Positions 45,444 through 63,983 of a DNA stretch of 64,000 nt are shown here, piece by piece. The stretch spans positions 1,120,001 to 1,184,000 of the forward strand of contig CAXXKT010000001.1 in assembly GCA_963662405.2 (NCBI GenBank), given 5' to 3'. How positions within the stretch are numbered: position 1 is the first letter of the stretch; each line of letters starts with the position of its first letter. A model generated the notes under the pieces. The model was not told the DNA's origin and searched no databases. It saw only the letters and a program-made list of their open reading frames with translations. Origin of the DNA: Syntrophales bacterium. Its GTDB lineage: Bacteria > Desulfobacterota > Syntrophia > Syntrophales > UBA2210. The translations under genes and the position numbers were made by a program.

Positions 45444-45735
45444 GAAGGTCCGGATCGGACTGAAATACTGTGGGGGGTGTAATCCCCGCTACGATCGTGT
45501 ACAGGCGGTAGGATACCTGCGGGAACGGTTGCAGGGCACCGTGGAACTTGTTTCGTACGAGGACCCGGATATTGCGGGTGTGCTGGTGGTTGCCGGCTGT
45601 CCTACCGCCTGCGTCGATCCGGAGCCGTTCAAAGAACGCTCCGTGTGGGTTGTTACCCGCCGACAGGGCATCGATGATTTTGTGAAAACCATCATACCGA
45701 GGGGAAAAAAGAATGCACTGGAAAGAATTATATAA
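45436..45735 (+). CDS. Small Cys-motif protein (KYCGGCNP...GCPTAC)
   Basis: 99 aa; overlaps the abfD stop and the CoA-transferase start (translational coupling). Confidence 0.75.
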   Translation: MSEKVRIGLKYCGGCNPRYDRVQAVGYLRERLQGTVELVSYEDPDIAGVLVVAGCPTACVDPEPFKERSVWVVTRRQGIDDFVKTIIPRGKKNALERII

Positions 45736-47008: not shown

Positions 47009-47149
47009 AAAGATCGGAGTGGCTTTTCGGCAGAGGGAGGTTCGGATCGAATGGGCGATTTGAACCGTTCCCCCGGATGTGAATATATCGGACGCCTTTA
47101 CCATCAGGAGATGGAGGAGTCACAGAAAACAGATGGGAGGTTAAGGAAA

Positions 47150-48301
47150 ATGGCACAGATATTTACGATAACGCCTAAGATCATCATGGGGTTGGGAGCA
47201 ATCGATGCAATTGGAGATGAGATCAAGCGACGGGGTGTAAAGAAGGTCCTAATCGTAACCGACAAAGGGGTTATTGCAGCAGGGTTGACGCAGGCCATTG
47301 AGGCGTCACTCACGGCGGCCGGAGTGGCATTTGGCACCTTTGACGGTGTGGAGCCCGATCCACGATATGAGATTGTCGCGGATTGTCTTGCAAAGGTGAA
47401 AAATGAGGAGGCTGAGCTCCTGATCGGACTCGGCGGAGGGAGTCCCATCGATATCGCCAAGACGACTGCGGTTATGGCGACAAACGACGGTCCCATCGGA
47501 GCGTACTTCGGGATTGATCTGATTCCCAAGCCGGGTCTCCCAACGATTATGGTCCCCACCACGGCGGGGACGGGGAGTGAGGTCACACCGATCGCGATTT
47601 TGTCCGACGAAGGCGAAAAGCTGAAAAAGGGTGTCGTGAGTCCTTATCTCTATCCTGCTGCGGGAATACTTGATCCGGTGCTGACCGCGGGGTTGCCTCC
47701 CCATGTAACGGCAGCCACGGGGATGGACGCGCTGATCCACGCAGTGGAGGCCTACACGTCCATTAATGCCACAGGGATGACGGATATGTACTGCATCCGT
47801 GCCATTGAACTTATTTACAACAACCTGCGGACGGCCTACGCCAAAGGCGACAATATGGAGGCGCGGACGGCGATGATGGAAGGGGCACTCCTGGCGGGTA
47901 TCGGTTTTGCGAATGCAGGTGTCACGGCGGTCCATGCCTTTGCCTATCCGATCGGGGCCGAGTTCCACATCCCCCACGGAGTTGCGAATACCCTCATGCT
48001 GCCCCATGTGATTCGTTATAACGTGCTGGGGAACCTGCCCAAGTTTGCGGGGCTGGCAAAGCCCTTCGGGATTCCGACGGAAGGCCTGGATGATCTTCAG
48101 ATTGTTGACCGTGTGATCGGGGCGATCGACCGGCTGGCCGACGATCTGCGTGTCCCGCGCCATCTTGCTGATTTCGGAGTAAAGGAAGAAGACGTACCGA
48201 TGCTGGCCGAGGGTGTGATGAAGGTGACCCGTCTCCTGGCCAACAATCCGAGAACGCTGATTCTCGAGGACGCTAAGGCGATATATACGGCGGCGCTTTA
48301 A
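47150..48301 (+). CDS. Iron-containing alcohol dehydrogenase (probable 4-hydroxybutyrate dehydrogenase / succinic semialdehyde reductase)
   Basis: GGGSPID, PTTAGTGSEVT, DALIHAVE and H...HIPHG iron ligands. Substrate inferred from context. Confidence 0.85.
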   Translation: MAQIFTITPKIIMGLGAIDAIGDEIKRRGVKKVLIVTDKGVIAAGLTQAIEASLTAAGVAFGTFDGVEPDPRYEIVADCLAKVKNEEAELLIGLGGGSPIDIAKTTAVMATNDGPIGAYFGIDLIPKPGLPTIMVPTTAGTGSEVTPIAILSDEGEKLKKGVVSPYLYPAAGILDPVLTAGLPPHVTAATGMDALIHAVEAYTSINATGMTDMYCIRAIELIYNNLRTAYAKGDNMEARTAMMEGALLAGIGFANAGVTAVHAFAYPIGAEFHIPHGVANTLMLPHVIRYNVLGNLPKFAGLAKPFGIPTEGLDDLQIVDRVIGAIDRLADDLRVPRHLADFGVKEEDVPMLAEGVMKVTRLLANNPRTLILEDAKAIYTAAL

Positions 48302-48388: not shown

Positions 48389-49690
48389 ATGGATAATAAG
48401 TCTCTGGTTGACAAACGATCGGCGACCCTCGCGAAATCTTTTGCGGGCGGCAAACCGGCCTTTGCGGCATATGGACAGGGTGCCATTTTGACTGACGTAG
48501 ACGGTCGTGAATATATCGATTTTGCGGGTGGAATCGGTGTCATGAATATCGGGCATTCCCATCCGAAAGTGGTCGCCGCCATTCAGGAACAGGCCGCGAA
48601 ACTGACACACTCCTGCTTCATGGTGGTGCCCTATGAACCGGCCGTCAAGCTGGCGGAGCGTCTCTGTGCCCTGACACCCGGTTCTTTCCCGAAGAAGGCC
48701 TTTTTCGTGAATGCCGGCGCCGAAGCGGTGGAGAACGCCGTGAAGATATCGCGGTATTATACCAAGAGGCCGGGGATCGTTGTCTTTGATAACTGCTTCC
48801 ACGGGCGGACCCTGCTCACCATGACGATGACGAGCAAGGCAAAGCCCTATAAGTTTGGATTCGGCCCCTTCGCCTCAGAGATTTACCATGCGCCCTATGC
48901 ATACTGTTACCGGTGTCCCTTCGGTCTGGAGTACCCGAAGTGTAATACCTACTGTGCCGATTTCCTGGCACAGGAGTTTTTTATCCGATGTCCTGCGGAA
49001 ACAACGGCGGCGGTGATAGCAGAACCCGTACAGGGTGAAGGTGGTTTTATCACACCTCCCCCTGAATATTTCCCGAAGGTTGCGCAGATCTGTAAAGATA
49101 ACGGGATACTCTTTGTCTCCGATGAAATTCAGGCGGGGATGGCACGGACGGGTGGAAAACTCTTTGCTATCGAGCACTGGGGTGTTGAGCCGGACCTGGT
49201 GACCATTGCGAAGAGTCTCGCCGCCGGTATGCCTCTCAGCGCCGTCGTCGGGAGAGAAGAGATCATGGATTCCATCCACCCCGGGGGAATCGGCGGGACC
49301 TACGGCGGCAACCCCGTGGCCTGCGCGGCAGGGAATGCCGTTCTGGACGCCTACGAGGAAGACAATATCCTCGATAAGAGTGAGGCGTTGGGTCAGAAAC
49401 TGTGGGCGGCATTCACGGAGATGCAGAAGAAGTACGAAATTATCGGCGATGTCCGTGGCAAGGGGCCGATGATCGCCCTTGAGTTGGTCGTGGACCGTGT
49501 GACGAAAGAGACCAATGCTGAGGCAGCGGGCAAGATCGCCGCCTACGCCTTTGAGAAGGGACTGATCCTCCTGAGCTGCGGACCCTATGGTAACTGCATC
49601 CGGTGCCTGATGCCGCTGGTGATTACCGATGAGCAACTCGATCGTGGGCTGGCGATTATTGACGAGGCCTTTGCCTCTCTCGAAAAGTAA
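48389..49690 (+). CDS. gabT: 4-aminobutyrate:2-oxoglutarate aminotransferase (class III PLP), copy 1
   Basis: YIDFAGGIGV.N.GHSHP, GAEAVENAVK, FHGRT, EPVQGEGGF, DEIQ.G..RTG, AKSLA.G.PLS and GGTYGGNP. Confidence 0.9.
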   Translation: MDNKSLVDKRSATLAKSFAGGKPAFAAYGQGAILTDVDGREYIDFAGGIGVMNIGHSHPKVVAAIQEQAAKLTHSCFMVVPYEPAVKLAERLCALTPGSFPKKAFFVNAGAEAVENAVKISRYYTKRPGIVVFDNCFHGRTLLTMTMTSKAKPYKFGFGPFASEIYHAPYAYCYRCPFGLEYPKCNTYCADFLAQEFFIRCPAETTAAVIAEPVQGEGGFITPPPEYFPKVAQICKDNGILFVSDEIQAGMARTGGKLFAIEHWGVEPDLVTIAKSLAAGMPLSAVVGREEIMDSIHPGGIGGTYGGNPVACAAGNAVLDAYEEDNILDKSEALGQKLWAAFTEMQKKYEIIGDVRGKGPMIALELVVDRVTKETNAEAAGKIAAYAFEKGLILLSCGPYGNCIRCLMPLVITDEQLDRGLAIIDEAFASLEK

Positions 49691-49998
49691 GAAATCATAG
49701 TTGGTAGTGTGTTCTTTAAAAATTCCGCGACCGGCGGAGATGATTCTTTAAAATAGTGATAATACTGCTGCCCATATCCTTTTTGGATGAGCCGGGACGG
49801 TTTCACAAAGCGTTTGTGCTCGGGGTATATGTCTGGACAGCAGTTATACGTGGTGACGACAAGATCCTGATATAGTCGGCGATGCACTCGATCATTGTGG
49901 CGCAATGACTTTGAAATGTGTAGCGCGGCACGTTCGGATCTTCGGCCTCTTCAGTGGGGAGAGGAAACCCTAATAAGCTATTGTGGAAGGAGAACGGG

Positions 49999-51255
49999 AT
50001 GAAAAAAGTAAATTGGTGGCGAAATGGATTTATCTGTGTTTTGGCCTTGGCATTTGTCTGCTTCATGATCGTATCAACGGGTACGTCAGCAGTGGCAAAG
50101 GACAAGGTCATTAAGATCGGGAACATCCTTCCTCTCTCAGGACCTTCGGCGTCGGTCGGTCTTCAGGGGAAGTATGCCCGTGAGCTGGCAACCGAGATGA
50201 TCAACAATGCAGGAGGCATCAAATCGTTGGGCGGCGCCAAACTGGAGAATATCTATGTCGACAGCAAGAGTGATCCCACCGTAGGCGTCACCGCTGCCGA
50301 ACGGCTCATCAATACGAATAGAGTTAATATCCTTTCGGGATGCTGGAACTCCGCCGTCACCTATCCGGCGACGCAGGTGGCAGAGCGATACCGCATCCCC
50401 TTCGTTGTTCCCGTGTCCGTGCGCAACACCATTACGGAACGGGGATTCAAATATACCTTTAGAATTGCGGCCAAGGACGCCTGGTGGACCCGCGATCAGT
50501 TCAAATTCCTGGAAGAGATGAAAGAAGCGACCGGGACGGAGTTGAAGACGGTTGCCTTTGTCTACGAGAATGGTGACTGGGGTGTTGGCATGGCCGAGCA
50601 GTGGACCCTTCTCGCAAAGACGTACGGCTACGAGGTGGTGCTCAATGAGCCCTATCCCAGCACCGCCAGTGACCTGACGCCTGTTGTCATGAAGATTAAA
50701 CGTGCCAAACCCGACGTCATATTGCTGACGTCGAATGCATCCGATGCAATCCTCCTGACCAACACCATGGCGGAAATGAAGGTCAAGGCCAAGGCGATTA
50801 TCGGCACGGGCGGTGGTCATGCAGACCCCATGTTCCGGAAGAACTGCGGAAAAAATGCCGAGAATATGTTTGACGTTGTCGAGTGGGAAGCGGACCTGAA
50901 CAAGCCCGGTATCCCCGAGTTGAACGCGGAATTCAAGAAACGTCACGGATTCGACCTCGCCGGTGAATCCGTGGATGCATTCGCATCGGTCTTCGTGATC
51001 GCGGATGCCCTTGAACGGGCCGGATCGACGAATCCTCAGAAACTGAGAGAGGCATTTGCCGCTACCAAGTTATCTACGGGTCCCGGCATGATCGTCTCTT
51101 ACGACTGTGTCGAATTCGACGAATCGGGGCAGAACAAGAACGCCGGTATCGTGATGGTCCAGTACCGCATGGTCAACGGAAATCTGGAACGTGTTTCCAT
51201 ATGGCCCAAGAGTGCTGCACGAACCGGCTATGAGGCCGTATTCCCAATGCCTTAG
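49999..51255 (+). CDS. HAAT/Liv-type ABC transporter substrate-binding protein
   Basis: Signal peptide; IKIG...PLSG and INNAGGIKSLGGAKLE...D. Confidence 0.9.
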   Translation: MKKVNWWRNGFICVLALAFVCFMIVSTGTSAVAKDKVIKIGNILPLSGPSASVGLQGKYARELATEMINNAGGIKSLGGAKLENIYVDSKSDPTVGVTAAERLINTNRVNILSGCWNSAVTYPATQVAERYRIPFVVPVSVRNTITERGFKYTFRIAAKDAWWTRDQFKFLEEMKEATGTELKTVAFVYENGDWGVGMAEQWTLLAKTYGYEVVLNEPYPSTASDLTPVVMKIKRAKPDVILLTSNASDAILLTNTMAEMKVKAKAIIGTGGGHADPMFRKNCGKNAENMFDVVEWEADLNKPGIPELNAEFKKRHGFDLAGESVDAFASVFVIADALERAGSTNPQKLREAFAATKLSTGPGMIVSYDCVEFDESGQNKNAGIVMVQYRMVNGNLERVSIWPKSAARTGYEAVFPMP

Positions 51256-51288
51256 GTGTATGACGTACGCATAACATTTATTAAAGAT

Positions 51289-51329
51289 CGGGATTCGGAA
51301 GAGCCCTTGCATAGCTCTTCCGAATCCCG
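51289..51329 (+). other. Intercistronic 16-bp perfect stem-loop after the binding-protein gene
   Basis: CGGGATTCGGAAGAGC-9 nt-GCTCTTCCGAATCCCG. Confidence 0.75.
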
Positions 51330-51350
51330 CAGAGCGAAAACGAGGTTGTT

Positions 51351-52235
51351 ATGGATGTAATTCTACAAGCAATCGTCAACGGGACATTGACTGGCTCGAT
51401 TTACGGGCTTGCTGCATTGGGACTGACGTTGGTCTTTGGTGTTATCAAGGTCATTAATTTTGCCCACGGTTCATGCCTGATGGTCGGGATGTATACCGCT
51501 TACTGGGTTGTGCAATTAACGGGAATGCACCCCTATCTTGCCTTGATTATTGTTGTTCCGTTTCTCTTTCTCTTTGGATATTTCCTGCAGGAAATCGTCG
51601 TCAAACCGGTCTTGGTTGCTCAGGCTGACGTCCGTGAACCGACCGAAGTGATTATCGTAACCACCGGTGTCTGGTATATCCTTGATAATATAACGCTGAT
51701 GATGTTTGGGGCCGAATATCGGGTTGTACAGACATCCCTGTCCGGCAAGTCGTATGAACTGGGGAACCTGATCGTCTCCACACCGAAGCTGTATGGCTTC
51801 ATCGCCACGATTCTCGTGTCCGTTGCGCTGGTATGGTTTCTGAAGAGTACAAAAATGGGGAAATCGATCCGGGCCGCAAGTCTGGATCGTGAGGCGGCGA
51901 GCCTTATGGGAATCAACCAGTACCGGGTTTACAATATTGCCTTTGGCATCGCCACCGGCATTATGGGCGTGGTGGGCTGCGTGCTTCTCCCATTCTACTA
52001 TGTCTTTCCCACCGTTGGGGTTATTTTCGATGTCAAGTGCTTTATCATTGTCGTATTGGGAGGTCTGGGAAGCATCCCCGGGGCACTGATTGGAGGAGTC
52101 ATTGTCGGTCTCATTGAATCCATCGGAGCTCAGTTTATGACATCGACATGGACTGAGTTAATCGTCTATCTGGTCTTCTTGCTGGTACTCTTCGTCAGAC
52201 CAGCGGGACTGTTTGGCGAAACGAAGGACTGGTAG
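51351..52235 (+). CDS. livH: Branched-chain amino acid ABC permease (LivH-like)
   Basis: LGLTLVFGV.KVINFAHG, GKSIRAA and VVLGGLGSI.GA. Confidence 0.9.
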   Translation: MDVILQAIVNGTLTGSIYGLAALGLTLVFGVIKVINFAHGSCLMVGMYTAYWVVQLTGMHPYLALIIVVPFLFLFGYFLQEIVVKPVLVAQADVREPTEVIIVTTGVWYILDNITLMMFGAEYRVVQTSLSGKSYELGNLIVSTPKLYGFIATILVSVALVWFLKSTKMGKSIRAASLDREAASLMGINQYRVYNIAFGIATGIMGVVGCVLLPFYYVFPTVGVIFDVKCFIIVVLGGLGSIPGALIGGVIVGLIESIGAQFMTSTWTELIVYLVFLLVLFVRPAGLFGETKDW

Positions 52236-52253
52236 GAAAGGAGACAGAAAAAG

Positions 52254-53258
52254 ATGACAAAGGAAAAATTGGACAAGCTGCTCAAAATCATTCTGGTTGT
52301 GGGTGTCTTTACGCTCCCCCTCTGGATGAGGAGCCCGACATATCTCCAGATTTTGGTATTGCTCTTCTGGTACGCCTATCTTACCACCTCCTGGAATCTG
52401 GTTGGCGGATGGGCCGGCGTCCTGCCCTTGGGACACTCGGCATATATCGGCATTGGGGCGTACACATCGACGGCACTGGCCCTGCACTACGGTTTAAGCC
52501 CCTGGATCGGGATGTTCGCCGGGGGGATTCTTGCCGCAATTGTGGGGATCATTATTGGTGTTCCCACCTTGAAATTACGCGGCGCATACTTTGCGCTTTC
52601 GACGATGGCCTTCGGAGAAGGCGTACGGGTCTTTGTGGAGAACACCGATAAGATCGGCCCCTTCCTGATAAACGGGCCGAGAGGGATCTGTATTCCGCTC
52701 AAGGAATCGTTCTGGACCTTTCAGTTCATGAGCAAGGTTCCTTACTACTACATCATCCTGATTATGCTGAGCATCGCCCTTTTTATTACCTGGTATATGT
52801 CAAAGACCAAAATCGGCTACTATCTGAACGCAGGTGGTGAAGAGCCGGAAGCGGCAGAGGCGCTCGGGATCAATGTGGCGAAATATAAAGTAATCGCAAT
52901 GGCCATCAGTTGTTTTATGACAGGACTGGCTGGGACCTTCTACGCGCAACTGGCGCTTTATTTCTATCCCAAGGCTATCCTGGGACTGGATCTCTCCTTC
53001 GAAATCGCATTCATTGCCCTGATCGGAGGAAGAGGGACGATTGCAGGACCCGTGCTCGGTGCCTTAATTCTCCGGCCGGTTACCGATTTTTCGCGTATCT
53101 ATTTCAGCAGCGTATTGCCCGGTCTTCACCTCGTTATTTACGGGCTGGTTCTTATACTGGTGATGATCTATCAACCACGGGGCCTGCAGGAACCACTTAA
53201 CAGATTCTATAATTGGTTCCTCGATAAGGTGACTGGTAAGAAGGAGGTGAAGATGTAA
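52254..53258 (+). CDS. livM: Branched-chain amino acid ABC permease (LivM-like)
   Basis: WNLVGG.AG...LGH, LKLRGAYFAL.T, AAEALGIN and IGGRGT..GP. Confidence 0.9.
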   Translation: MTKEKLDKLLKIILVVGVFTLPLWMRSPTYLQILVLLFWYAYLTTSWNLVGGWAGVLPLGHSAYIGIGAYTSTALALHYGLSPWIGMFAGGILAAIVGIIIGVPTLKLRGAYFALSTMAFGEGVRVFVENTDKIGPFLINGPRGICIPLKESFWTFQFMSKVPYYYIILIMLSIALFITWYMSKTKIGYYLNAGGEEPEAAEALGINVAKYKVIAMAISCFMTGLAGTFYAQLALYFYPKAILGLDLSFEIAFIALIGGRGTIAGPVLGALILRPVTDFSRIYFSSVLPGLHLVIYGLVLILVMIYQPRGLQEPLNRFYNWFLDKVTGKKEVKM

Positions 53259-53992
53259 TGGCAGCAATACTTGAGGTCAAGAACGTATCGAAACATTTTG
53301 GTGGATTGAAAGCGGTCGATCAGGTTGATCTAACGATCGAGAAAGGCCAGATATACGGACTGATCGGACCGAACGGTGCCGGGAAGTCGACACTCTTCAA
53401 CTGTGTTGCCGGGACCTATGCACCGACATCGGGACAGATTCTTTTCAAAGGACAGGACATCACGGGAACGAAACCCTGGGATATCTGCAAGATGAGAATT
53501 GCCCGGACCTTTCAGCTGGTAAAACCCTTCAAGATGAAAACGGTCCTTTATAACACCATGGTGGGAGCCTTCGTGCGATCTAACAATCCTGCCGAGGTCA
53601 GGGACATGGCCCTGGAGGTCCTCGAGATGTTGAAGCTTGCCGATAAGAAGGACGTACTGGCGAAGAACCTCACGATAGCAGACAGAAAACGCCTTGAAGT
53701 GGCTCGTGCAATGGCAACGAACCCGGAGATTCTTCTTCTTGATGAGTGTATGGCTGGCTTGAGACCGAACGAAGTCGATGCGATCCTCGATATCGTTCGA
53801 GGTATCAGAGATCGGGGTGTGACGATTTTTGTCATTGAGCACATTATGAGGGCAATTATGACACTCTCGGATCGTATTATGGTGATTCATTTTGGGGCAA
53901 AAGTGATGGAAGGAACACCCCAAGAAGTATCACAAGATGAACGAGTCATAAAAGCATACCTAGGGGAGAGTTATGTCGCTACTGGAAATTAA
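53258..53992 (+). CDS. livG: ABC ATP-binding protein (LivG-like)
   Basis: FGGLKAV, GPNGAGKST, ARTFQ, LLDE, IEH and V.KAYLG. Confidence 0.92.
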   Translation: MAAILEVKNVSKHFGGLKAVDQVDLTIEKGQIYGLIGPNGAGKSTLFNCVAGTYAPTSGQILFKGQDITGTKPWDICKMRIARTFQLVKPFKMKTVLYNTMVGAFVRSNNPAEVRDMALEVLEMLKLADKKDVLAKNLTIADRKRLEVARAMATNPEILLLDECMAGLRPNEVDAILDIVRGIRDRGVTIFVIEHIMRAIMTLSDRIMVIHFGAKVMEGTPQEVSQDERVIKAYLGESYVATGN

Positions 53993-54683
53993 AAATATCA
54001 ACTGCTTTTACGGAGATGTCCAGGTCATCTACGGCGTGTCGATGCATGTTGAAGAAGGTGAAATCATTAGTATGATCGGTGCCAACGGTGCCGGAAAATC
54101 AACAATTCTCAGGTGTATTTCAGGTTTGATGAAGGCGGCCTCAGGAGAGATCTATTTTGAAGGCCAACCGATTCACAACCATCGACCCGAGAAAATTGTG
54201 GACCGCGGTGTGATCCACGTCCCCGAGGGTCGAAAACTGTTCTCCCTGATGACATCGAAAGAGAACCTCGAGGTGGGTGCACACAACCCCCGCGCCTATC
54301 CTCACATGAAGGAAAGCTTCGCAGATGTCTACAAACTGTTGCCGCGGTTGCAGGAGCGGGAGGATCAGCAGGCGATTACCATGAGCGGTGGTGAACAGCA
54401 AATGGTAGCCATTGGCCGCGGGATGATGGCCATGCCAAAGATCCTGATGCTCGACGAGCCATCACTTGGTCTTGCTCCTGTCCTGATCCAGGAAATCTTC
54501 CAGACGATCAGGAAAATTGCGGACCAGGGAACCACCGTACTGCTCGTGGAGCAAGACGTGCAGCATTCTCTCAGTCTGAGTGATCGTGGATATGTACTCG
54601 AACACGGCCGCATCGCTTATGAAGGCACGGGAAAAGAGTTGTTGGATAACCCGAATATCCGAGAGGCCTACCTCGGGATATAG
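53973..54683 (+). CDS. livF: ABC ATP-binding protein (LivF-like)
   Basis: GANGAGKST, VPEGR, MSGGEQQM, LDEPSLGLAP and LVEQ. Confidence 0.92.
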   Translation: MSLLEIKNINCFYGDVQVIYGVSMHVEEGEIISMIGANGAGKSTILRCISGLMKAASGEIYFEGQPIHNHRPEKIVDRGVIHVPEGRKLFSLMTSKENLEVGAHNPRAYPHMKESFADVYKLLPRLQEREDQQAITMSGGEQQMVAIGRGMMAMPKILMLDEPSLGLAPVLIQEIFQTIRKIADQGTTVLLVEQDVQHSLSLSDRGYVLEHGRIAYEGTGKELLDNPNIREAYLGI

Positions 54684-54913: not shown

Positions 54914-55660
54914 ATGAAAGTAGATCTCAATGTGGACATGGGTGAGAGTTTTGGGATGTATACCATGGGAAATGATGAGGCGTTTATGTCCTACATCACA
55001 AGTGCAAATGTTGCCTGCGGATATCACGCGGGAGATCCCACCGTGATGAAGAAGACGGTGGATCTGGCCAAGAAGCATGGCGTGCAGGTGGGTGCTCATC
55101 CCGGGCTCCCCGATTTGCAGGGCTTCGGGCGCCGTGAAATTAACATGACGATGGATGAAATCTACAGCGATATCGTCTATCAGGCCGGCGCACTGAAGGC
55201 CTTTGTCGAAGCGGCGGGCATGAAACTGCACCATGTGAAACCCCACGGTACACTGTACGGCATGGCGCACCGCAGAGAGGATGTAGCGCGGGCGATCTGC
55301 CAGGCCATCCTTGATGTGGACAAGGGCCTGTATCTCTACGCCATGAAGAAAGGGGTGATCGAGGGGGTAGCAAAGGAGATGGGCGTGAAAGTCGTCTTCG
55401 AAGTGTATGCCGATCTCGATTATGACGCGGAAGGAAATCTGGTCATCACAAGACATCATGAGGCACATAAGCCGGAAGATGTCGCCGCAAAGGTCATCAA
55501 GATGGTCAAAGACGGTCGTGTCAGCACGACCGACGGAACGGAGATCGATATCGAAGGATCGTCGGTCTGTGTTCACTCCGACAGCCCCGGCGCCATAGAG
55601 ATTGTCACCGCAGTCCGAAAGGTACTGGATAACAACGGGTACGAGATCGTTTCCCCGTAA
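54914..55660 (+). CDS. pxpA: LamB/YcsF family protein (PxpA-like lactam hydrolase subunit)
   Basis: DLNVDMGESFG, SANVACGYHAGDP, GAHPGLPDLQGFGRR, HVKPHG.LY and CVHSDSPGA. Confidence 0.92.
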   Translation: MKVDLNVDMGESFGMYTMGNDEAFMSYITSANVACGYHAGDPTVMKKTVDLAKKHGVQVGAHPGLPDLQGFGRREINMTMDEIYSDIVYQAGALKAFVEAAGMKLHHVKPHGTLYGMAHRREDVARAICQAILDVDKGLYLYAMKKGVIEGVAKEMGVKVVFEVYADLDYDAEGNLVITRHHEAHKPEDVAAKVIKMVKDGRVSTTDGTEIDIEGSSVCVHSDSPGAIEIVTAVRKVLDNNGYEIVSP

Positions 55661-55821
55661 TGGCTATCTATGTGTATGTGTGATCAGTCTGGAGAGGAAA
55701 TACCGGGAAAGACGGTATGGATCCCAAAGCGAATATGATGGGTTGAATGTAGAGAGGAAAGGAGGTTTTTGGGTCACCTAGGGTGTAGTTTCGAACAATT
55801 AACGAAAGGAGCTCAAATACT

Positions 55822-56808
55822 ATGGGAGAAAGAGACTATAATGTGATTCTGGACACGTTGCCTGCAACTGAGACGAGACTGGAAGTACTGTTCCGGCAGG
55901 CGGGAGATGGTTTTCTTCAGATTGAGTATGGGAGAACGCAGCGTGCAAACCTGCTCGATTCCTTCCGGATGCAGACGATCGATGCGGAGGTCAGGGAAAA
56001 GGCGCCGAAGGGGTTCATTGAAACCCTGCCGGGGGTCAGGACGAATATGATCCATTTCGACCCCGAGGTGCTCGATGTCCGTGCCCTTATCGATATGATC
56101 AAACAGTTCGAAGAAGATCTTCCCGACGTGGAGCATATCGTGATGCCGTCACGTCTGATTCACCTGCCGATCGCGTTCGAAGACAGCGAGACCAAAAAAG
56201 CTGTGGAAAAGTATGTGAAAGAAATTAGGCCCGATGCCCCCAATGTCATTAACGGTTATAACCTGGAGTACATGGCCCTCTGCAACGGGGTGACCGCCGA
56301 GGATATCAAAAAGATCCTCCTTGCCACCGAGTGGTATAACAGCGGCGGCGGTTTCTGGCCCGGCGGCGGTTTCTTCTGGCCGGTCGACCCGCGGTGCGCC
56401 ATTGTTGTCCCCAAATACAATCCGCCCCGAACCTGGACACCGGAAGGAACGGTTGGCATCGGTGGCCCCTGTGTCTTTACCTACACCACCGCAACCGGCG
56501 GCGGATATCAGCTTTTCGGGAGAACGATCCCCGTCTTCCAGTTCGCCCAGAAACACCCCCTCTTCAAGAAATCACCATTCCTGTATGTCAACGGTGACAG
56601 AATCGTATTCCACGAGGTTAGTGAGAAGGAGATCCTCGATGGGTTCGATCACGTCCACAACAAGGCCGATTACGAGTATGAGATCGAGGACGGCGAGATC
56701 GTGGTCAAGGAATACTTGGATTTCGTGAATTCTGAAGAGGTCAAAAAGGGCGCTGCGGAATTTCAGGCCAAACAGGCCGAGGGTTCAAAGACGGCCCCCC
56801 GCCTCTAA
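55822..56808 (+). CDS. Carboxyltransferase C/D-domain subunit (urea-carboxylase-type, PxpB/KipI superfamily)
   Basis: RQAGD...IEYG, PSRLIHLP..FED, DPR, PKYNPPRTWTPEGTVGIGG and GGYQLFGRT; 328 aa, longer than typical PxpB. Confidence 0.85.
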   Translation: MGERDYNVILDTLPATETRLEVLFRQAGDGFLQIEYGRTQRANLLDSFRMQTIDAEVREKAPKGFIETLPGVRTNMIHFDPEVLDVRALIDMIKQFEEDLPDVEHIVMPSRLIHLPIAFEDSETKKAVEKYVKEIRPDAPNVINGYNLEYMALCNGVTAEDIKKILLATEWYNSGGGFWPGGGFFWPVDPRCAIVVPKYNPPRTWTPEGTVGIGGPCVFTYTTATGGGYQLFGRTIPVFQFAQKHPLFKKSPFLYVNGDRIVFHEVSEKEILDGFDHVHNKADYEYEIEDGEIVVKEYLDFVNSEEVKKGAAEFQAKQAEGSKTAPRL

Positions 56809-56832
56809 TCACATCTGCAGAAGGAGGACGTT

Positions 56833-57816
56833 ATGTTGAAGATATTAAAGGGTGGTATTGAATCGATGGTTGAGGATTGGCCCGGCAGGTTGGGATATCT
56901 GAGCAAGGGTATGGCCGCTTCCGGTGCTCTGGACAATATGGCTCTTCAGTTCGGAAATCTGCTGGTGGGAAACCCCATTGACGAGGCAGGCGTGGAGATC
57001 GCCGGTGGCTATTTCGAGGCAGAATTTCTGGATGATGGCGTGATCAGCGTGTGCGGAACCGACATGAAACCCACCATCAACGGCACGTCGATCCCCATGT
57101 GGGAGGCTGTCGCGGTGAAGAAGGGCGATACGTTGAACCTCGCCGTATTCGGAGAGTTCGGATTCCGCGCATATCTTGCCATTGCCGGCGGGATCGATGT
57201 CCCCAAATATCTGGGGAGCAAATCGACCTGTATGTTTGGAAGCTACGGCGGTTTTGAAGGACGGGCGCTGCTCCCCGGCGATGTCCTGAAGATCGGCGCT
57301 CCCTCAAAGAATCTGGGCGATCTCGCGGGACGGAAGCTGAAGGACGATGTGGTCCCGAAATACTCGCGAGTCTGGGAACTGCGGACCATACCGGGACCCA
57401 ACACCTGCCCCGATTACGTGACGAAGGAGGGAATGGATTATCTGTATGAGACCGAGCACAAGATACAGCATACCTCCAACCGTTCCGCCTATCGTATCGA
57501 ATCGGTCCCGGAGTATTTCTGGGCGCGAAAGGATGGGGGCGTCGGTGGAAGCCATCCGTCCAACATCGTTGATCACGGTTACGCGATTCGCGGTACCCTG
57601 AACATCTGTGGTGATACCCCCATTATTCTGATCGGGGATGGGCCCACGCTGGGCGGGTATGTCAACGTGATGCACGTAATAAATGCGGATCTGTGGAAAA
57701 TCGGCCAGGGAACCCCTGCCCGTGACAGTTTCAAGTTCAGCTATATCACCCGAGAAGGGGCGATAGAGGAACGGAAGAAACAGAAGGCCCTGTATACTGA
57801 AGCGTCAATTGCTTAA
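56833..57816 (+). CDS. Carboxyltransferase A/B-domain subunit (urea-carboxylase-type, PxpC/KipA superfamily)
   Basis: DWPGRLGY...SGALD, RAYLAIAGGIDVP.YLGS.ST, WARKDGG..G.HPSNIVDHGY and DGPTLGGY. Confidence 0.87.
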   Translation: MLKILKGGIESMVEDWPGRLGYLSKGMAASGALDNMALQFGNLLVGNPIDEAGVEIAGGYFEAEFLDDGVISVCGTDMKPTINGTSIPMWEAVAVKKGDTLNLAVFGEFGFRAYLAIAGGIDVPKYLGSKSTCMFGSYGGFEGRALLPGDVLKIGAPSKNLGDLAGRKLKDDVVPKYSRVWELRTIPGPNTCPDYVTKEGMDYLYETEHKIQHTSNRSAYRIESVPEYFWARKDGGVGGSHPSNIVDHGYAIRGTLNICGDTPIILIGDGPTLGGYVNVMHVINADLWKIGQGTPARDSFKFSYITREGAIEERKKQKALYTEASIA

Positions 57817-57851
57817 TACATTGATCAATCAAATGAGATGAGGAGGATATT

Positions 57852-58073
57852 ATGGATTTCGCTGTGGAAGCGACGATGCCGGGATTGGTGGCACGAGTTG
57901 TTGTGAACGCGGGTGATGCGGTTGCGGAAGGTCAGGAAGTGGCTGTCATCAATTGTATGAAAACCGAGATCAGTGTTGCTGCCGCGAAGGCAGGCTCTGT
58001 CAAGACCATCAAGGTCAAGGAGTGGGATGAGGTACAGGTCGGCGATCCGATGGTGATCCTGGATGTAGCCTGA
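57852..58073 (+). CDS. Stand-alone biotin carboxyl carrier protein
   Basis: 73 aa biotinyl/lipoyl domain, A.MPG.V....V..GD.V..GQ....NCMKTE..V.A..AG.V; AGGAGG RBS. Confidence 0.88.
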   Translation: MDFAVEATMPGLVARVVVNAGDAVAEGQEVAVINCMKTEISVAAAKAGSVKTIKVKEWDEVQVGDPMVILDVA

Positions 58074-58189
58074 GCGCCTCTCGACGCGTTATTCACATTG
58101 AAATTTCCGTGGGGCGACGTCATCCTGATGCCGCTCCACGGAATCCAACATCGCATCATAAAATTGCTATCGAAGGGGGTAGTATTGTT

Positions 58190-58795
58190 ATGCAAGAGGT
58201 AAAAGAGGTAAATGTGAATGTTCAAGTGGCGGATGCCGGGTCGGCCGGATGGATAGCCTATACGATCGCTACCTGGATCGCGTGGGCGTCCCTGTGCGGA
58301 TTTGTCAACAGCAAGGCCCTGCTCTTCATGGCCTGCATCTCTCTGGCCTGCACCATTCCCTATATCGGTGCCGCGATTACGCAGCTGAAGCTCGGGAATG
58401 TGTCCGGTGGAGTCACGTGGCTCTATTTCGGTGCATTCTTTGCCTTTTGTTCGGCCCTGACCTATGGTGTCAGCTATTTTGCGCCCATCTATGGATGGGA
58501 ACTGGATGCCAGGATCCTGGGATATGAGTGGGCTGTCCTGGGGTTGACACTGATCTGCTCGACACCCATATTCCTGAAGCTGGCACCGGCGGCAGCCGGC
58601 ATATCTGTTATCGGAGCCGATATAGGTATCGTTGGACTGACCCTGATATACTGGGGGATGAACGGTCCGGCCATGTGTCAGTTGAGTGGGTGGGGCTTCT
58701 TTGTGGCAGGTCTTTTCGGCCTTTTTATGACCATCGGGGGTATTCTTGAGGGTGCCGATATGAAGTTCCCCATGGGAAAACCTTTAATGAAGTAG
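58190..58795 (+). CDS. Divergent GPR1/FUN34/YaaH (SatP/AceTr)-like 6-TM channel
   Basis: ADAGSAG aligns with the NPAPLG position, LKLGN..GG....YFG with the GNTFG position, and it ends in FPMGKP; 6 TM. Confidence 0.6.
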   Translation: MQEVKEVNVNVQVADAGSAGWIAYTIATWIAWASLCGFVNSKALLFMACISLACTIPYIGAAITQLKLGNVSGGVTWLYFGAFFAFCSALTYGVSYFAPIYGWELDARILGYEWAVLGLTLICSTPIFLKLAPAAAGISVIGADIGIVGLTLIYWGMNGPAMCQLSGWGFFVAGLFGLFMTIGGILEGADMKFPMGKPLMK

Positions 58796-58934
58796 ATAAT
58801 GAGAGATGGTAACGGGTTCCGTTAACCCTATGTAAGTGACGGAGTTCGACGTCCGGGTTGATCGGAGAAGAATCTTCGATCAACCCGTGTAACCCGTTGC
58901 CGTCCGCACTTGGTAGAGGATAAGGACAGAATCA

Positions 58935-60290
58935 ATGAAGAAGATTTTAATTGCCAACAGAGGGGAGATTGTTCTTAGGGTAATCAAGGCGGCCAGGGAA
59001 TTGGGGATACAGACCGTTGCTGTCTATTCCGATGTCGACAAGGATGCCGTCCACACACGCGCGGCGGATGAAGCGGTGAATATCGGGACTCCCCCACCTC
59101 CCTTCAGCTATCTGAGTATCGAAAATATTATCAAGGCGGTCAACGAGTCAGGGGCGGACGCAGTGCATCCGGGATATGGTTTTCTTTCTGAAAACGCTGA
59201 TTTCGCTCAGGCTGTGGTCAATAACGGTACCACGTGGATAGGGCCGTCGCCGGAGGTGCTTCGTAATATCGAATCGAAGTCGTATTGCAGAAGCCTGGGA
59301 AAGAAAGTGAACGTTCCGATTACCCCGGGGACTGTCGGGAGTGTGAAGAGTGCGGACGAGATCCGTGCGTTGTTCAAAGAACTGGGTGCTCCGCTCTTGG
59401 TGAAACTCGATAAGGGTGGGGGAGGAAAGGGGATACAGCCCATATACCGCGAAGAGGATATCGAGGCGATATTTGAATCCTCCCAAAGTATCGGGAAGGC
59501 AGCCTTTGGTTCCGGAGATTGTTACATCGAAAAACGGATACTCAATCCACGTCACATCGAGGTTCAGTTCCTCGGTGACATGTATGGAAATTATATCACC
59601 CTCGGCGAGCGAGAATGCTCGGTCCAGAGAAGGTACCAGAAGGTTGTCGAGGAGGCTCCCTCATCGATCGTGACCCCGGAGGAGCGGAAGAATCTGGCGC
59701 AATGGGCAATCAGCATAGCGCGTGAGATGGGGTATATCAACGCCGGAACCGTCGAGTTTCTGCGGGCGGACGATGGCACGTTCTACTTTATGGAAGTCAA
59801 TGCGCGGATACAGGTCGAGCACCCTGTTACCGAGATGGTGACAGGTATCGATCTCGTCAAAAGCCAGTTGCGGATTGCCTCGAATGAAAAGCTGGATATC
59901 GTCCAGGACGATATCCAGATCAATGGCCATGCCATTGAGGCCCGTATCTATGCGGAAGATCCGGAAACCTTTATGCCTTCGCCGGGAACGATCAGCATGG
60001 TAGTGCTCCCTGAAGAAAAGAATGGGATACGGATCGACCATGCCCTCGAAGAGGGTATGAGGGTGTCGCCCTTTTATGATCCCATGCTGGCAAAGGCGAT
60101 CGCATGGGGTGAAAACCGTGACGCGGCCGTTGAACGGCTGGAGGGTCTGCTGGGTGAACTGGTGATCGGGGGCGTGAAGACCACCATACCCCTCGGGCAG
60201 CTCATATTGAAGAGTGAACCCTTCAAGCAAGGAACCTTTACCACGGATTCTATGAATGATATCTTGCCGGGAGCGAAGGAGTCAAAGTAA
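58935..60290 (+). CDS. Biotin carboxylase subunit
   Basis: ILIANRGEI, HPGYGFLSENA, GGGGKG, RHIEVQ, ERECSVQRR.QK, FMEVNARIQVEHPVTE, EARIYAEDP and YDPMLAK. Confidence 0.93.
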   Translation: MKKILIANRGEIVLRVIKAARELGIQTVAVYSDVDKDAVHTRAADEAVNIGTPPPPFSYLSIENIIKAVNESGADAVHPGYGFLSENADFAQAVVNNGTTWIGPSPEVLRNIESKSYCRSLGKKVNVPITPGTVGSVKSADEIRALFKELGAPLLVKLDKGGGGKGIQPIYREEDIEAIFESSQSIGKAAFGSGDCYIEKRILNPRHIEVQFLGDMYGNYITLGERECSVQRRYQKVVEEAPSSIVTPEERKNLAQWAISIAREMGYINAGTVEFLRADDGTFYFMEVNARIQVEHPVTEMVTGIDLVKSQLRIASNEKLDIVQDDIQINGHAIEARIYAEDPETFMPSPGTISMVVLPEEKNGIRIDHALEEGMRVSPFYDPMLAKAIAWGENRDAAVERLEGLLGELVIGGVKTTIPLGQLILKSEPFKQGTFTTDSMNDILPGAKESK

Positions 60291-60600: not shown

Positions 60601-62352
60601 ATGAAGAGAGAGCCCCCCATGAAGAGACCGATGAAACTCGAACGTATCTTTAACGATTGTTCCGTCGGTTTCGTTGTTGTCGACGGTGCAGAGGAGATCC
60701 AGTTTGTGAACGACCGGGCCTGTCACATGATTGGCAGGGCGAGAGCGGATCTATTGGGCGCCGCCATCGGGGACGTCAACCCACTCCTCCGGGATATTCT
60801 CAGGTCGGATACCCCCTGTCAAAAAGGACATCATGTTATCAACAAAGATAAAAATCTTGCCGTGCACATCGCCCCCATTACCACGGACGGAAGAGCTGCC
60901 GGTTTTTTTATCTCCCTCCTGGATATACGGGAACTGAAGAGGATCACCGATGAGTTGCAATCATATCAGAACAGGATCAGCCAGTTTGATGCCATTTTCA
61001 ATACGACGTCCGACGGTATCTGGCTCTGCGACGGAGAGGGAACAATCCTGGCAATCAATAAAACATCCGAGGGGTTTAACGGTATTCGCGCTGAGGATTT
61101 TATAGGCAAAAACATTGCCTTTGCAGCGGAAAAAGGGATCTTTGACAGATCGGGAACCATGGAGGCAATCAAGGCCAGACGCGAAGTTACGATCGTCCAG
61201 AATGTAACCAAACGGAAGCATTCCCTCATGGTGACCGGGACCCCTGTCTTTGATGAGACCGGAGAGATCGCTATGGTGGTTGTAACTGAACGGGACATGA
61301 CTCAGCTGAATGTAATCCGTGATCAGCTTGCACAGACCCTCATGGTGACGGAACGGTACAAGGACGAACTGGCGAAACTCAGTATGCAGGATTTTGCGGA
61401 GGAGGGGATCGTCGCCGAGAGCGAGGAAATGCGTAAGACCCTTCGTGTCGCGAGGAGACTTGCCTACCTGAATGTATCCAATATACTTATACTCGGTGAA
61501 TCGGGTACGGGGAAGGGTGTCCTCGCCAAACTCATCCACAAAAAAAGTGTACGACAGGAAAAACCCTTCGTGCAGATCAACTGTGCGGCACTCCCGGAGA
61601 GCCTGCTCGAGGCGGAGCTGTTCGGGTATGAAAAAGGGGCCTTCACCGGTGCCCGGGAGCAGGGAAAGATCGGACTCTTTGAACTCGCGCAGGGAGGGAC
61701 CCTCTTTCTTGATGAGATCGGCGATCTTCCCCTGGCACTCCAGGCCAAACTGCTGAAGTATCTCGATGATAATGAGATCATCAGACTAGGGGGCATCAAA
61801 CCCAAGAAGATCGATTGTACCATCATTGCCGCGACAAACCGGGATCTCGAGACGCTGACGGAATCGAGACAATTTCGCGAAGATCTCTATTTCCGCCTCA
61901 ACTCGTTCGTCATCAGAATTCCTCCTCTGCGGGAACGCACCGGCGATATATTTGAACTGGTGCATTTTTTCCTCAACCGGTATAATCAGACGTATCAAGT
62001 TGACAAACGTATTACCCACCGGGCGTTATCACTTTTAAACGAATATTCCTTTCCGGGAAATGTGCGAGAACTCCAGAATCTCTTCAAGCAGGCCGTCGTG
62101 ATGAGCGAGGATGATGAGGTGGATGATTTCGTGATCCACGCCTGTGGTCGAAGGGCCAAGACCCGGAATCAGAAAGAGAGTTTTCGGAAAATCGACATGC
62201 CTTTGGCAGACACAATGCGCCTGCAGGAACGTGCCGTGCTGGAGGATGCCGTGAAACACTGCCGTTCAACCCGAGAGATGGCCCGTTTTCTGGGTATTGG
62301 TCAGACATCTGTCATTCGCAAATTGAAGAAATATAACCTTTCACTCAGGTGA
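60601..62352 (+). CDS. PAS-domain sigma54 enhancer-binding protein (paralog of 41447-43210)
   Basis: Two PAS domains; GESGTGK, EAELFGYEKGAFTGA, FPGNVREL and TyrR-like HTH STREMARFLGIGQTSVIRKLKKY. Confidence 0.92.
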   Translation: MKREPPMKRPMKLERIFNDCSVGFVVVDGAEEIQFVNDRACHMIGRARADLLGAAIGDVNPLLRDILRSDTPCQKGHHVINKDKNLAVHIAPITTDGRAAGFFISLLDIRELKRITDELQSYQNRISQFDAIFNTTSDGIWLCDGEGTILAINKTSEGFNGIRAEDFIGKNIAFAAEKGIFDRSGTMEAIKARREVTIVQNVTKRKHSLMVTGTPVFDETGEIAMVVVTERDMTQLNVIRDQLAQTLMVTERYKDELAKLSMQDFAEEGIVAESEEMRKTLRVARRLAYLNVSNILILGESGTGKGVLAKLIHKKSVRQEKPFVQINCAALPESLLEAELFGYEKGAFTGAREQGKIGLFELAQGGTLFLDEIGDLPLALQAKLLKYLDDNEIIRLGGIKPKKIDCTIIAATNRDLETLTESRQFREDLYFRLNSFVIRIPPLRERTGDIFELVHFFLNRYNQTYQVDKRITHRALSLLNEYSFPGNVRELQNLFKQAVVMSEDDEVDDFVIHACGRRAKTRNQKESFRKIDMPLADTMRLQERAVLEDAVKHCRSTREMARFLGIGQTSVIRKLKKYNLSLR

Positions 62353-62681: not shown

Positions 62682-63983
62682 ATGGGCAATCAGTCATTAG
62701 TGGAAAGACGGGCGGGTGCACTTGCGGCCTCGTTTAATAACGGGAAGCCGGCCTTTGCGGCATCGGGTTTTGGTGCAGCCTTTACAGATGTAGAAGGCCG
62801 TGAGTACATCGATTTCGCCGGCGGGATTGCGGTGATGAATGTGGGCCACTCGCATCCGCGGGTAGTGGCGGCGATCAAGGAACAGGCGGAGCGGTTTACG
62901 CACACCTGTTTCATGGTGGTGCCGTATGAAGGAGCGGTCCGGTTGGGTGAGCGACTCTGTGCGTTGGCGCCGGGGGATTTCCCCAAAAAGGCCTTTTTTG
63001 CCAATTCGGGGGCAGAGGCCGTCGAAAATGCGGTTAAGGTAGCGCGGTATTACACGAAAAGGCAGGGGATCGTCGCATTTGATAATGCCTTTCATGGGCG
63101 AACGCTGCTGACCATGGCAATGACGAGCAAGGCAAAACCGTACAAGTTTGGATTCGGCCCCTTTGCGCCTGAGGTATACCATATGCCCTATGCGTACTGT
63201 TACCGGTGTCCCTTTGGGCTCGACTATCCGAAGTGTGGGATATACTGTGCGGAGTATCTGAAGGATGAGATGTTTATACGGTGTCCTGCCGAAACCACGG
63301 CTGCTGTGATTGCGGAGCCTGTTCAGGGTGAAGGCGGGTTCATTACCCCTCCGCCCGAGTATTTTCCGAAGATCGCCAAGATCTGTCGGGATAATGGGAT
63401 TCTGTTCGTTTCAGACGAGATCCAGGCCGGTATGTGCCGTACGGGCGAGAAGATCTTCGCCATAGAACATTGGGACGTTGAACCTGATCTGATGACCGTT
63501 GCGAAAAGTCTTGGCGCCGGCTTACCGATCAGTGCCCTTGTGGGTCGTGCGGAGATCATGGATTCGATTCATGCGGGCGGTATCGGTGGCACGTACGGAG
63601 GTAATCCGGTGGCCTGTGCGGCGGCGAATGCGGTCTTGGACATTATCGATGAAGAGGGGCTTCCTGCGCGAAGTGAGGCCTTGGGTAAAAAATTATGGTC
63701 TGCCTTTGAGGATCTGGAGCGTGAGTACGAGGTGATCGGCGATGTGCGCGGCAAGGGTCCGATGATTGCGCTGGAGTTGGTAAAGGATCGCGAGACGAAG
63801 GAACCGGACAGCGCTTCAGCGGCGGCAGTCGCGGCCTATGCCTTTGAGAAAGGTTTGATCCTGTTGACCTGCGGTCCCTACGGGAATGTGATCCGCTGTT
63901 TGATGCCGCTGGTGATCACCGATGAGCAACTCGACAAAGGTCTTTCGATTATAGATGAAGCATTCGCGTCATTGAAGAGGTAG
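62682..63983 (+). CDS. gabT: 4-aminobutyrate (omega-amino acid) aminotransferase, copy 2
   Basis: Same class III PLP motifs; 433 aa, collinear with and highly similar to 48389-49690. Confidence 0.9.
   Translation: MGNQSLVERRAGALAASFNNGKPAFAASGFGAAFTDVEGREYIDFAGGIAVMNVGHSHPRVVAAIKEQAERFTHTCFMVVPYEGAVRLGERLCALAPGDFPKKAFFANSGAEAVENAVKVARYYTKRQGIVAFDNAFHGRTLLTMAMTSKAKPYKFGFGPFAPEVYHMPYAYCYRCPFGLDYPKCGIYCAEYLKDEMFIRCPAETTAAVIAEPVQGEGGFITPPPEYFPKIAKICRDNGILFVSDEIQAGMCRTGEKIFAIEHWDVEPDLMTVAKSLGAGLPISALVGRAEIMDSIHAGGIGGTYGGNPVACAAANAVLDIIDEEGLPARSEALGKKLWSAFEDLEREYEVIGDVRGKGPMIALELVKDRETKEPDSASAAAVAAYAFEKGLILLTCGPYGNVIRCLMPLVITDEQLDKGLSIIDEAFASLKR

Follow-up and report, generated by a model that had tools for sequence, protein, structure and literature searches.

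What would a LamB-family hydrolase do in an operon whose other genes encode the pieces of a biotin-dependent carboxylase? The question is raised by a 64,000-nucleotide stretch of a Syntrophales bacterium genome (assembly GCA_963662405.2, contig CAXXKT010000001.1, positions 1,120,001 to 1,184,000; hereafter the window), in which an initial annotation had placed five open reading frames (ORFs) for a LamB/PxpA-family protein, the two halves of a carboxyltransferase (CT_C_D and CT_A_B), a minimal biotin carboxyl carrier protein (BCCP), and a biotin carboxylase (BC). All five were found there on the + strand, each preceded by a purine-rich Shine-Dalgarno-like stretch. We consider it probable that they form a five-protein biotin-dependent lactam hydrolase that would carboxylate the nitrogen of 2-pyrrolidone (gamma-butyrolactam), open the ring through LamB, and deliver 4-aminobutyrate (GABA) to fermentation. 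The gene content, domain identities, conserved residues, clade position, and recurring neighbors on which this reading draws are direct observations.

Both CT halves carry the motifs of the fused urea/guanidine carboxylases and, as first annotated, are much nearer to urea carboxylase than to PxpB/PxpC; hidden Markov model (HMM), PDB search, and fold agree on this. On the urea carboxylase model TIGR02712, they scored 228.6 and 289.2 bits; the cut-off of 1303.85 is set for a single fused chain and was not reached with the parts on separate ORFs (best part, 477.6 bits). Both fell below the Pxp cut-offs, with 43 against 145.55 for PxpB (TIGR00370) and 166.6 against 500 for PxpC (NF045499). Their top PDB matches were the Kluyveromyces lactis urea carboxylase/urea amidolyase (KlUA; E 3e-38 and 1e-54), with Escherichia coli YbgJ/YbgK ranking behind (E 5e-8 and 2e-32), and the Foldseek comparison of the CT_C_D model gave a TM of 0.75 to KlUA versus 0.44 to YbgJ. 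The model has pLDDT below 50 at residues 178-180 and 199-241, and pocket geometry was not read from it.

Residue equivalences were instead counted along sequence alignments to PDB 5I8I. Lys198 (KYNP) and Tyr221 of CT_C_D correspond to KlUA Lys1605 and Tyr1628, and Asp247 (SNIVD), Tyr250, and Asn257 of CT_A_B to Asp1321, Tyr1324, and Asn1330, so the Lys and Asp that had been named as the catalytic pair are indeed retained. The roles of Asp1321, Tyr1324, Asn1330, and Tyr1628 were reportedly described by Fan in 2012. Lys1605 is given as the likely general base of the K. lactis urea carboxylase (PMC5770610). Among the 617 CT_C_D homologues collected that match it in length, the top 120 share at least 66% identity with it; KYNP was kept in 118 of these 120 close homologues and the D..Y..N set in 77 of 78 CT_A_B sequences. 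In the same columns, canonical PxpBC proteins have Ser/Thr, a variable residue, Gln, and Arg, and by alignment it is this Asp/Tyr/Asn/Lys set, not the pocket segment, that sets the family apart from them.

The pocket segment itself is less telling. Asp1584 of GLGDV is missing from CT_C_D, where GLGDVF is replaced by GGG-FW with Phe178 in the segment; the replacement by an aromatic stretch, already noted in the initial annotation, is real, but the pocket is not distinctive, as a non-Asp, GFxPG-like segment also occurs in E. coli PxpB (GFQPGF), in PA0492-type splits (GFVxGL), and in fungal fused enzymes (GFFxG). The GxGFWP pattern was found in 118 of the 120 close homologues and GLGDVY in 110 of 120 fused matches. 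Judged from these alignments, Asp1584 is a special trait of urea/guanidine carboxylases, and the "aromatic" segment is not peculiar to this family. An Asp versus Asn rule has been put forward for guanidine versus non-guanidine carboxylases (PMC12186494); its position, the Asn1330 column, was taken from our own alignment, in which the UAAP-bearing loci L106 and L109 carry Asp. The window protein has Asn257 there, the non-guanidine state, which supports the neutral substrate proposed earlier.

The ATP-grasp motifs of BC and the biotin Lys of BCCP place both proteins, by sequence, among the biotin-dependent carboxylases. The biotin-accepting Lys37 sits in INCMKTE (CMK), not the usual AMK, and most BCCPs of the family carry INCMK(T/N)E in place of the usual EAMK. 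Separate BC and BCCP genes had been offered as a mark that distinguishes the operon from PxpABC; the genes are present, but by themselves they do not suffice as a diagnostic mark, since the same genes lie beside short PxpB-type CT genes in loci L104, L105, and L107.

Phylogeny set the family apart from both known groups. The tree was built from concatenated CT domains (IQ-TREE, LG+G4, shortened search, 55 of the 118 rows of a FastTree set) and is read through its split-wise supports; LG+G4 is prone to long-branch errors. The family formed a clade with UFBoot 100 and paired with a Thermomicrobium split form (99), and the two together were sister to all 28 fused enzymes (fused group 100, union 100), inside which the GLGDV urea/guanidine carboxylases formed one clade (UFBoot 100). 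All long Asp/Lys forms were split from short PxpBC at UFBoot 100. In this tree, which holds no sequences of the reference species named for the check (K. lactis, O. sagaranensis, Bacillus subtilis, and Aspergillus nidulans), the CT halves nest neither in the PxpBC branches nor in the fused urea carboxylases, and the proposal of a distinct subfamily between the two that keeps the carboxyl-transfer residues is borne out by tree and alignment alike. "Split urea carboxylase", the name first given to the operon, probably has the direction wrong, the family being sister to the fused enzymes and not nested among them; because the root is placed at PxpBC, which is an assumption, the unfused, non-Asp state would be the older one. 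The fused clade sister to the family includes fungal non-Asp enzymes (LamA itself is absent from the tree). No close fused form of the family was found among the best 120 longer matches, which were fused carboxylases at 32-39% identity. P0285 is a natural fusion of LamB-BC-CT_AB-CT_CD-BCCP in a single 1512-aa chain with a non-Asp pocket; its LamB domain is 48% identical to the window LamB, and it is a one-member cluster found on 2 contigs.

If the CT halves point to carboxyl transfer onto a neutral substrate, the neighborhood narrows which one. A GTDB scan gave 114 related loci; the analysis used the 80 best, or 81 with the window, and these come from sulfate reducers, syntrophs, and clostridia. 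Desulfotruncus arcticus and Clostridium ljungdahlii ERI-2 are examples of carriers in culture. LamB was present in 78 of the 81. Among the 50 well-flanked loci (at least 7 kb on either side, window counted), LamB, CT_A_B, and a BCCP-cluster gene were identified in 50/50 each, BC in 44/50, and a class III transaminase in 28/50. For 38 of the 80 other loci, in Thermodesulfobacteriota, Myxococcota-labelled, and Bacillota genomes, a GabT-like gene lay no more than about 10 kb away, and in 13 loci it stood directly between LamB and CT_C_D; out of 10 such genes sampled, 8 exceeded the TIGR00700 cut-off, 1 was just under, and 1 was a putrescine transaminase. As background, 11 of 60 related genomes encode a GabT over the cut-off at any position. 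Within the order, 13 CT loci of other types were checked and showed no GabT in their vicinity (0 of 13), but 7 of those stretches measure less than 10 kb. The counts overstate significance, as kin are not independent, but the link still recurs in several classes. Other recurring neighbors in the 81 loci were a sigma-54 activator (36), AOR (24), a sugar-type binding protein (22), DUF1097 (20), and an OYE flavoprotein (19), with biotin ligase near 5; these recurring neighbors did not include a glutamate decarboxylase cluster.

In the window, the operon is flanked by a whole C4 route comprising AbfD, AbfT, an iron-containing alcohol dehydrogenase, two GabT, and glutamate dehydrogenase, which the initial annotation did not mention. 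Conversion of GABA through GabT, a reductase, AbfT, and AbfD to crotonyl-CoA is the known anaerobic 4-aminobutyrate route. This context narrows the substrate to a GABA-yielding lactam, most likely 2-pyrrolidone. Neither CT nor GabT was found in 7 same-genus genomes searched, and because both are missing from them, the block seems to have been gained as a whole.

In the mechanism that we propose, BC would carboxylate biotin on Lys37 of BCCP with ATP and bicarbonate, and the CT heterodimer, with Lys198 and Asp247 kept, would pass the carboxyl group on to the nitrogen of the lactam. The resulting N-carboxy-lactam would be an activated, imide-like amide that LamB could hydrolyze to N-carboxy-GABA, which would then lose CO2. 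The net reaction would be 2-pyrrolidone + ATP + water to GABA + ADP + Pi, with bicarbonate acting catalytically. GABA would proceed through GabT, the iron-containing alcohol dehydrogenase, AbfT, and AbfD to crotonyl-CoA, and the adjacent glutamate dehydrogenase would recycle 2-oxoglutarate. The substrate, carboxylation at N rather than O, the role of LamB, and expression of the genes are the parts of this scheme that we infer. ATP would be needed because five-membered lactams resist hydrolysis: for 5-oxoproline, a Keq of about 0.035 is reported (PMC13274462), and by analogy we extend this resistance to 2-pyrrolidone. Genetics in Pseudomonas putida KT2440 is consistent with such a system. PP_2920-2, which carries a PxpABC paralogue annotation, is reported to be required for growth on butyrolactam and to be specific for it versus 5-oxoproline and valerolactam (bioRxiv 10.1101/2021.12.09.472016); in the supplement of PMC10949508, the butyrolactam fitness module consists of PP_2919-2922 plus PP_0362, which is bioB, and the module with the 5-oxoprolinase PP_4575-7 contains no bio gene. 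A PxpBC homologue, MSMEG_0435-0436, is described as binding a BCCP whose biotin is poised for carboxylation (PMC13012033). The five-domain fusion P0285 also speaks for the scheme. Our literature search, which did not cover subscription journals or theses, turned up neither an experiment on biotin-dependent carboxylation of lactams nor a description of this anaerobic clade.

Several observations weigh against lactam carboxylation on 2-pyrrolidone. GabT was not near 42 of the 80 other loci, no class III transaminase at all accompanied 22 of the well-flanked 50, BC was absent within 10 kb in 6 of the 50, AOR and the OYE flavoprotein are left unexplained as neighbors, and GabT-family enzymes also accept 5-aminovalerate. 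The pocket segment is common to PxpB and cannot name the substrate, and the CMK motif of BCCP, the predicted biotinylation site, is non-canonical. For P. putida, three genes are reported to have been enough for complementation (bioRxiv 10.1101/2021.12.09.472016), and the butyrolactam module holds bioB only, not bioFHC, and does not figure among the authors' six cofactor modules as given in PMC10949508; PP_2920-2922 are three genes in an aerobic host, likened to the operon by annotation and genetics. The published PxpABC model has PxpBC phosphorylate the lactam (PMC13274462, PMC8453981), MSMEG_0435 is reported to have no urea carboxylase activity and is read as a regulator, with MSMEG_0435-0436 inhibiting a carboxylase (PMC13012033), and mumC, a biotin carboxylase family gene of the Acinetobacter baumannii mum operon, is reported to be needed for urea use (PMC5050338).

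The alternative that survives best concerns the role and is compatible with the proposed chemistry: the system could repair butyrolactam formed in the cell by cyclization of activated GABA, the importer bringing in GABA and not the lactam. Schmidt et al. argue this for P. putida and report lags in its growth on omega-amino acids (bioRxiv 10.1101/2021.12.09.472016), and here the cluster CoA-transferase could activate GABA and the importer is of the LIV type. Many family loci, however, have an importer of their own, such as the sugar-type binding protein, and AbfT was near only 3 of 81, which fits uptake from outside; we regard repair as unlikely, though a serious contender. The same biotin/LamB chemistry might otherwise act on another lactam or omega-amino amide (valerolactam, a substituted pyrrolidone, N-acyl-GABA, or GABA amide). 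The breadth of GabT-type enzymes, the AOR and OYE loci, the loci lacking GabT, and the occurrence of two LamB subtypes within the family speak for this, but AbfD and AbfT of the window locus fix a C4 product, and the CT pocket is nearly invariant over the 120 homologues, which suggests a single substrate. Another substrate is thus rather improbable in our view.

A 5-oxoprolinase with a biotin module, that is, the PxpABC function with the GABA genes as co-acquired bystanders, would account for LamB scoring over the PxpA subfamily cut-off, for the genome carrying single copies of LamB, CT_C_D, and CT_A_B, and for a glutamate dehydrogenase after the cluster that would use glutamate. It is very improbable given that the CT halves lie below the PxpB/PxpC cut-offs and outside the PxpBC branches, and that the recurring neighbor is GabT, often inside the operon, and not a glutamate route. 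A further possibility is that CT and LamB follow the phosphorylation model and open the lactam without carboxyl transfer, BC and BCCP serving regulation or some other purpose. When combined, B. subtilis PxpA, B, and C are said to show ATP-dependent activity (Niehaus, in 2017), which counts for it, as do the published PxpABC model, the loci without BC nearby, and the inhibition of a carboxylase by MSMEG_0435-0436. Still, a Pfam scan detected an ATP-binding domain in neither CT half, the urea carboxylase catalytic residues are kept, the BCCP cluster is present in every well-flanked locus, and P0285 fuses all five domains, and we give this possibility little credence. That the operon encodes a urea or guanidine carboxylase divided among several proteins, for which the best structural and HMM matches and the mumC phenotype speak, is extremely improbable, as Asp1584 is lost family-wide, Asn and not Asp stands at 1330, the family lies outside the GLGDV clade, and UAAP1, UAAP2, and AtzF homologues were found in 0 of 80 loci (positive control L109 scores) with none over cut-off in the genome.

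The last point agrees with what had been seen from the window alone. Genome searches found no DUF1989 (CgdAB) gene, none of 7 amidase-family matches reached the allophanate hydrolase cut-off, and an Rfam scan of window positions 40000-64000 gave no match, including no guanidine riboswitch. A biotin ligase homologue is present in the genome. The features of the locus are collected in the table.

Table. Features of the lactam/GABA locus; coordinates are window positions except in the glutamate dehydrogenase row.
Feature	Position	Strand	Support
PAS-domain sigma-54 activator, likely regulator, upstream of pathway	41447..43210	+	
4-Hydroxybutyryl-CoA dehydratase, AbfD type	43989..45443	+	PDB 1u8v, E 4.5e-211
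4-Hydroxybutyrate CoA-transferase, AbfT/Cat2 type	45713..47008	+	PDB 3eh7, E 1.1e-154; 3gk7, E 6.5e-137
Iron-containing alcohol dehydrogenase	47051..48301	+	PF00465/PF25137
4-Aminobutyrate transaminase GabT1	48389..49690	+	TIGR00700 557.9 > cut-off 506.65
LIV-type ABC importer: binding protein (49996-51255), two permeases, two ATPases	49996..54683	+	
LamB/PxpA-family hydrolase, proposed ring-opening subunit	54914..55660	+	PF03746 324 bits; NF003814 327.7 > cut-off 226
CT subdomains C+D, long urea-carboxylase-like form (328 aa)	55822..56808	+	PF02682
CT subdomains A+B	56833..57816	+	PF02626
Minimal BCCP, 73 aa	57852..58073	+	PF00364
SatP-like membrane protein, 201 aa, between BCCP and BC	58190..58795	+	ESM Atlas likeness
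BC	58935..60290	+	PF00289/PF02786/PF02785; BC motifs present
Second PAS-domain sigma-54 activator	60601..62352	+	
4-Aminobutyrate transaminase GabT2	62682..63983	+	TIGR00700 574.3 > cut-off
NADP-type glutamate dehydrogenase, just past window end, after GabT2	L129:2129-3478		NF006929 739.6 > cut-off 536

Some of these assignments need comment. The iron-containing alcohol dehydrogenase was below all NCBIfam equivalog cut-offs, including that for 4-hydroxybutyrate dehydrogenase (240 versus 500), and is by context a probable succinic semialdehyde reductase. The importer binding protein matched PF13458; its permeases and ATPases were assigned from ORF sequence and clustering, outside the Pfam scan. 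The small membrane protein between BCCP and BC, which the initial annotation had passed over, had no match in Pfam and NCBIfam searches and an ESM Atlas score of 0.95 with 30/30 matches in PF01184 clusters; it thus resembles the Gpr1/Fun34/YaaH (SatP) small-acid channels, a lead only, and such a gene was seen in 16 of the 81 family loci. A sigma-54 consensus search returned 4 matches versus 3.2 expected, none close to the operon, and a sigma-70 promoter scan stayed at the level of chance.

The AbfD gene occurs in three near-identical copies (99.6-99.9% DNA identity), one in the window (43989-45443) and two at G000:C1 1194841-1196292 and 51751-53190; two of the three stand on either side of the lactam/GABA block, about 31 kb from each other, and at least 7 further AbfD-like paralogues are encoded in the genome. 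In other loci, the operon adjoins either a putrescine transaminase and AOR or members of the xanthine/aldehyde oxidase family of molybdenum hydroxylases (L006:15999-17393; L040, L063, L067, L075; L081), and one may speculate that such enzymes make 2-pyrrolidone from 1-pyrroline. Seven loci, mostly from Bacillota (L041, L046, L056, L059, L068, L070, and L074), encode BCCP, CT, and LamB with no BC in the examined DNA and may borrow a BC encoded elsewhere.

Further CT forms were found at greater distance. A further subfamily is represented at L128:7522-10321 (G052:C18) by long, divergent CT halves that are accompanied by LamB, have neither BC nor BCCP in their vicinity, and in the columns of Asp1321, Asn1330, and Lys1605 carry Thr, Glu, and Gln. 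P0287, P0267, and P0435-P0553 carry GFWPG and KYNPPRTWTP in a long CT_C_D, to which BC is fused in some of them, and fall in clusters with hundreds of members; this abundant clade is apparently marine alphaproteobacterial, a homologue search with P0267 having returned marine and Inquilinus proteins. P0233 and P0254 join GLGDV-type CT domains to a pyruvate-carboxylase-type HMGL/PYC_OADA domain and BCCP, and these are either chains with two carboxyl-transfer modules or assembly chimeras.

The five-part gene set is already known to be widespread, annotated piecemeal as PA0492-type and mum-type operons, and genetic work has already tied LamB systems to lactam use. The CT subunits of PxpABC/Lam-type systems have no detected ATP-binding domain, yet the literature assumes that these systems spend ATP on lactam phosphorylation. 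The operon described here holds every part for a carboxylation alternative (BC, BCCP, CT, and LamB), and its neighbors name the likely substrate. A broader idea, possible but held tentatively and not favored, is that LamB-partnered CT systems in general open lactams by transient biotin-dependent N-carboxylation and not by phosphorylation, those without BC/BCCP borrowing the host's, and that urea/guanidine carboxylase arose from them by fusion and the gain of one Asp. If the carboxylation mechanism is right, a second class of N-carboxylating biotin enzyme would stand beside urea/guanidine carboxylase, the origin of the latter would be explained, and the labels "urea carboxylase" and "allophanate hydrolase subunit" would be corrected for many genes of anaerobes. 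2-Pyrrolidone is the nylon-4 monomer and a dead-end product of GABA and putrescine, and an anaerobic pathway from it to crotonyl-CoA would bear on sediments, digesters, and guts.

Compared with known systems, the operon shares with K. lactis urea carboxylase (3VA7, 5I8I; TIGR02712) the BC, CT A-D, and BCCP domains and the equivalents of five catalytic-site residues. It differs in consisting of four polypeptides for that one chain, in lacking Asp1584, in having LamB in place of allophanate hydrolase or CgdAB, and in belonging to a sister clade; fused urea carboxylase relatives are at most 39% identical to the window CT_C_D. The features of the guanidine carboxylase pathway, namely Asp at the Asn1330 position, CgdAB (DUF1989), and a guanidine riboswitch, are absent from it. 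With PxpABC (E. coli ybgJKL, B. subtilis, and Corynebacterium glutamicum), it shares PxpA/LamB, CT_C_D, and CT_A_B as separate proteins and the GFxPG segment, whereas PxpB is about 220 aa long versus 328, PxpBC lack the Asp/Tyr/Asn/Lys set, the PxpABC product is glutamate, and the branches are separate. LamB satisfies the PxpA subunit model while the CT halves fail the PxpB/PxpC cut-offs and branches, and on sequence grounds the family fits neither urea carboxylase nor PxpABC.

The PA0492-PA0496-type and mumTLUHC-type operons have LamB, BCCP, BC, and CT as the same five-part set (annotation of PA0493/4 in PMC5521831). They differ in having separate CT clades (CT_C_D at 25-29% identity) and no GABA pathway in the loci opened. 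The A. baumannii mum operon presumably also contains a LamB gene. Operons of these types were found in Rhizobium, Burkholderia, Rubrobacter, Agrobacterium, Lactiplantibacillus, and Klebsiella plasmids, with no Pseudomonas among the matches listed in the plasmid searches. Another parallel is the LamA/LamB pair of A. nidulans, which we take to be a urea-carboxylase-like enzyme paired with a LamB protein for 2-pyrrolidinone use; LamA (P38095) is one fused chain in an aerobic host and is likened here by description. The P38095 protein is described as a 1241-aa urea carboxylase without an amidase (PMC3073912). Fungal fused enzymes of 1234-1283 aa carry a non-Asp GFF pocket, like the family in the window.

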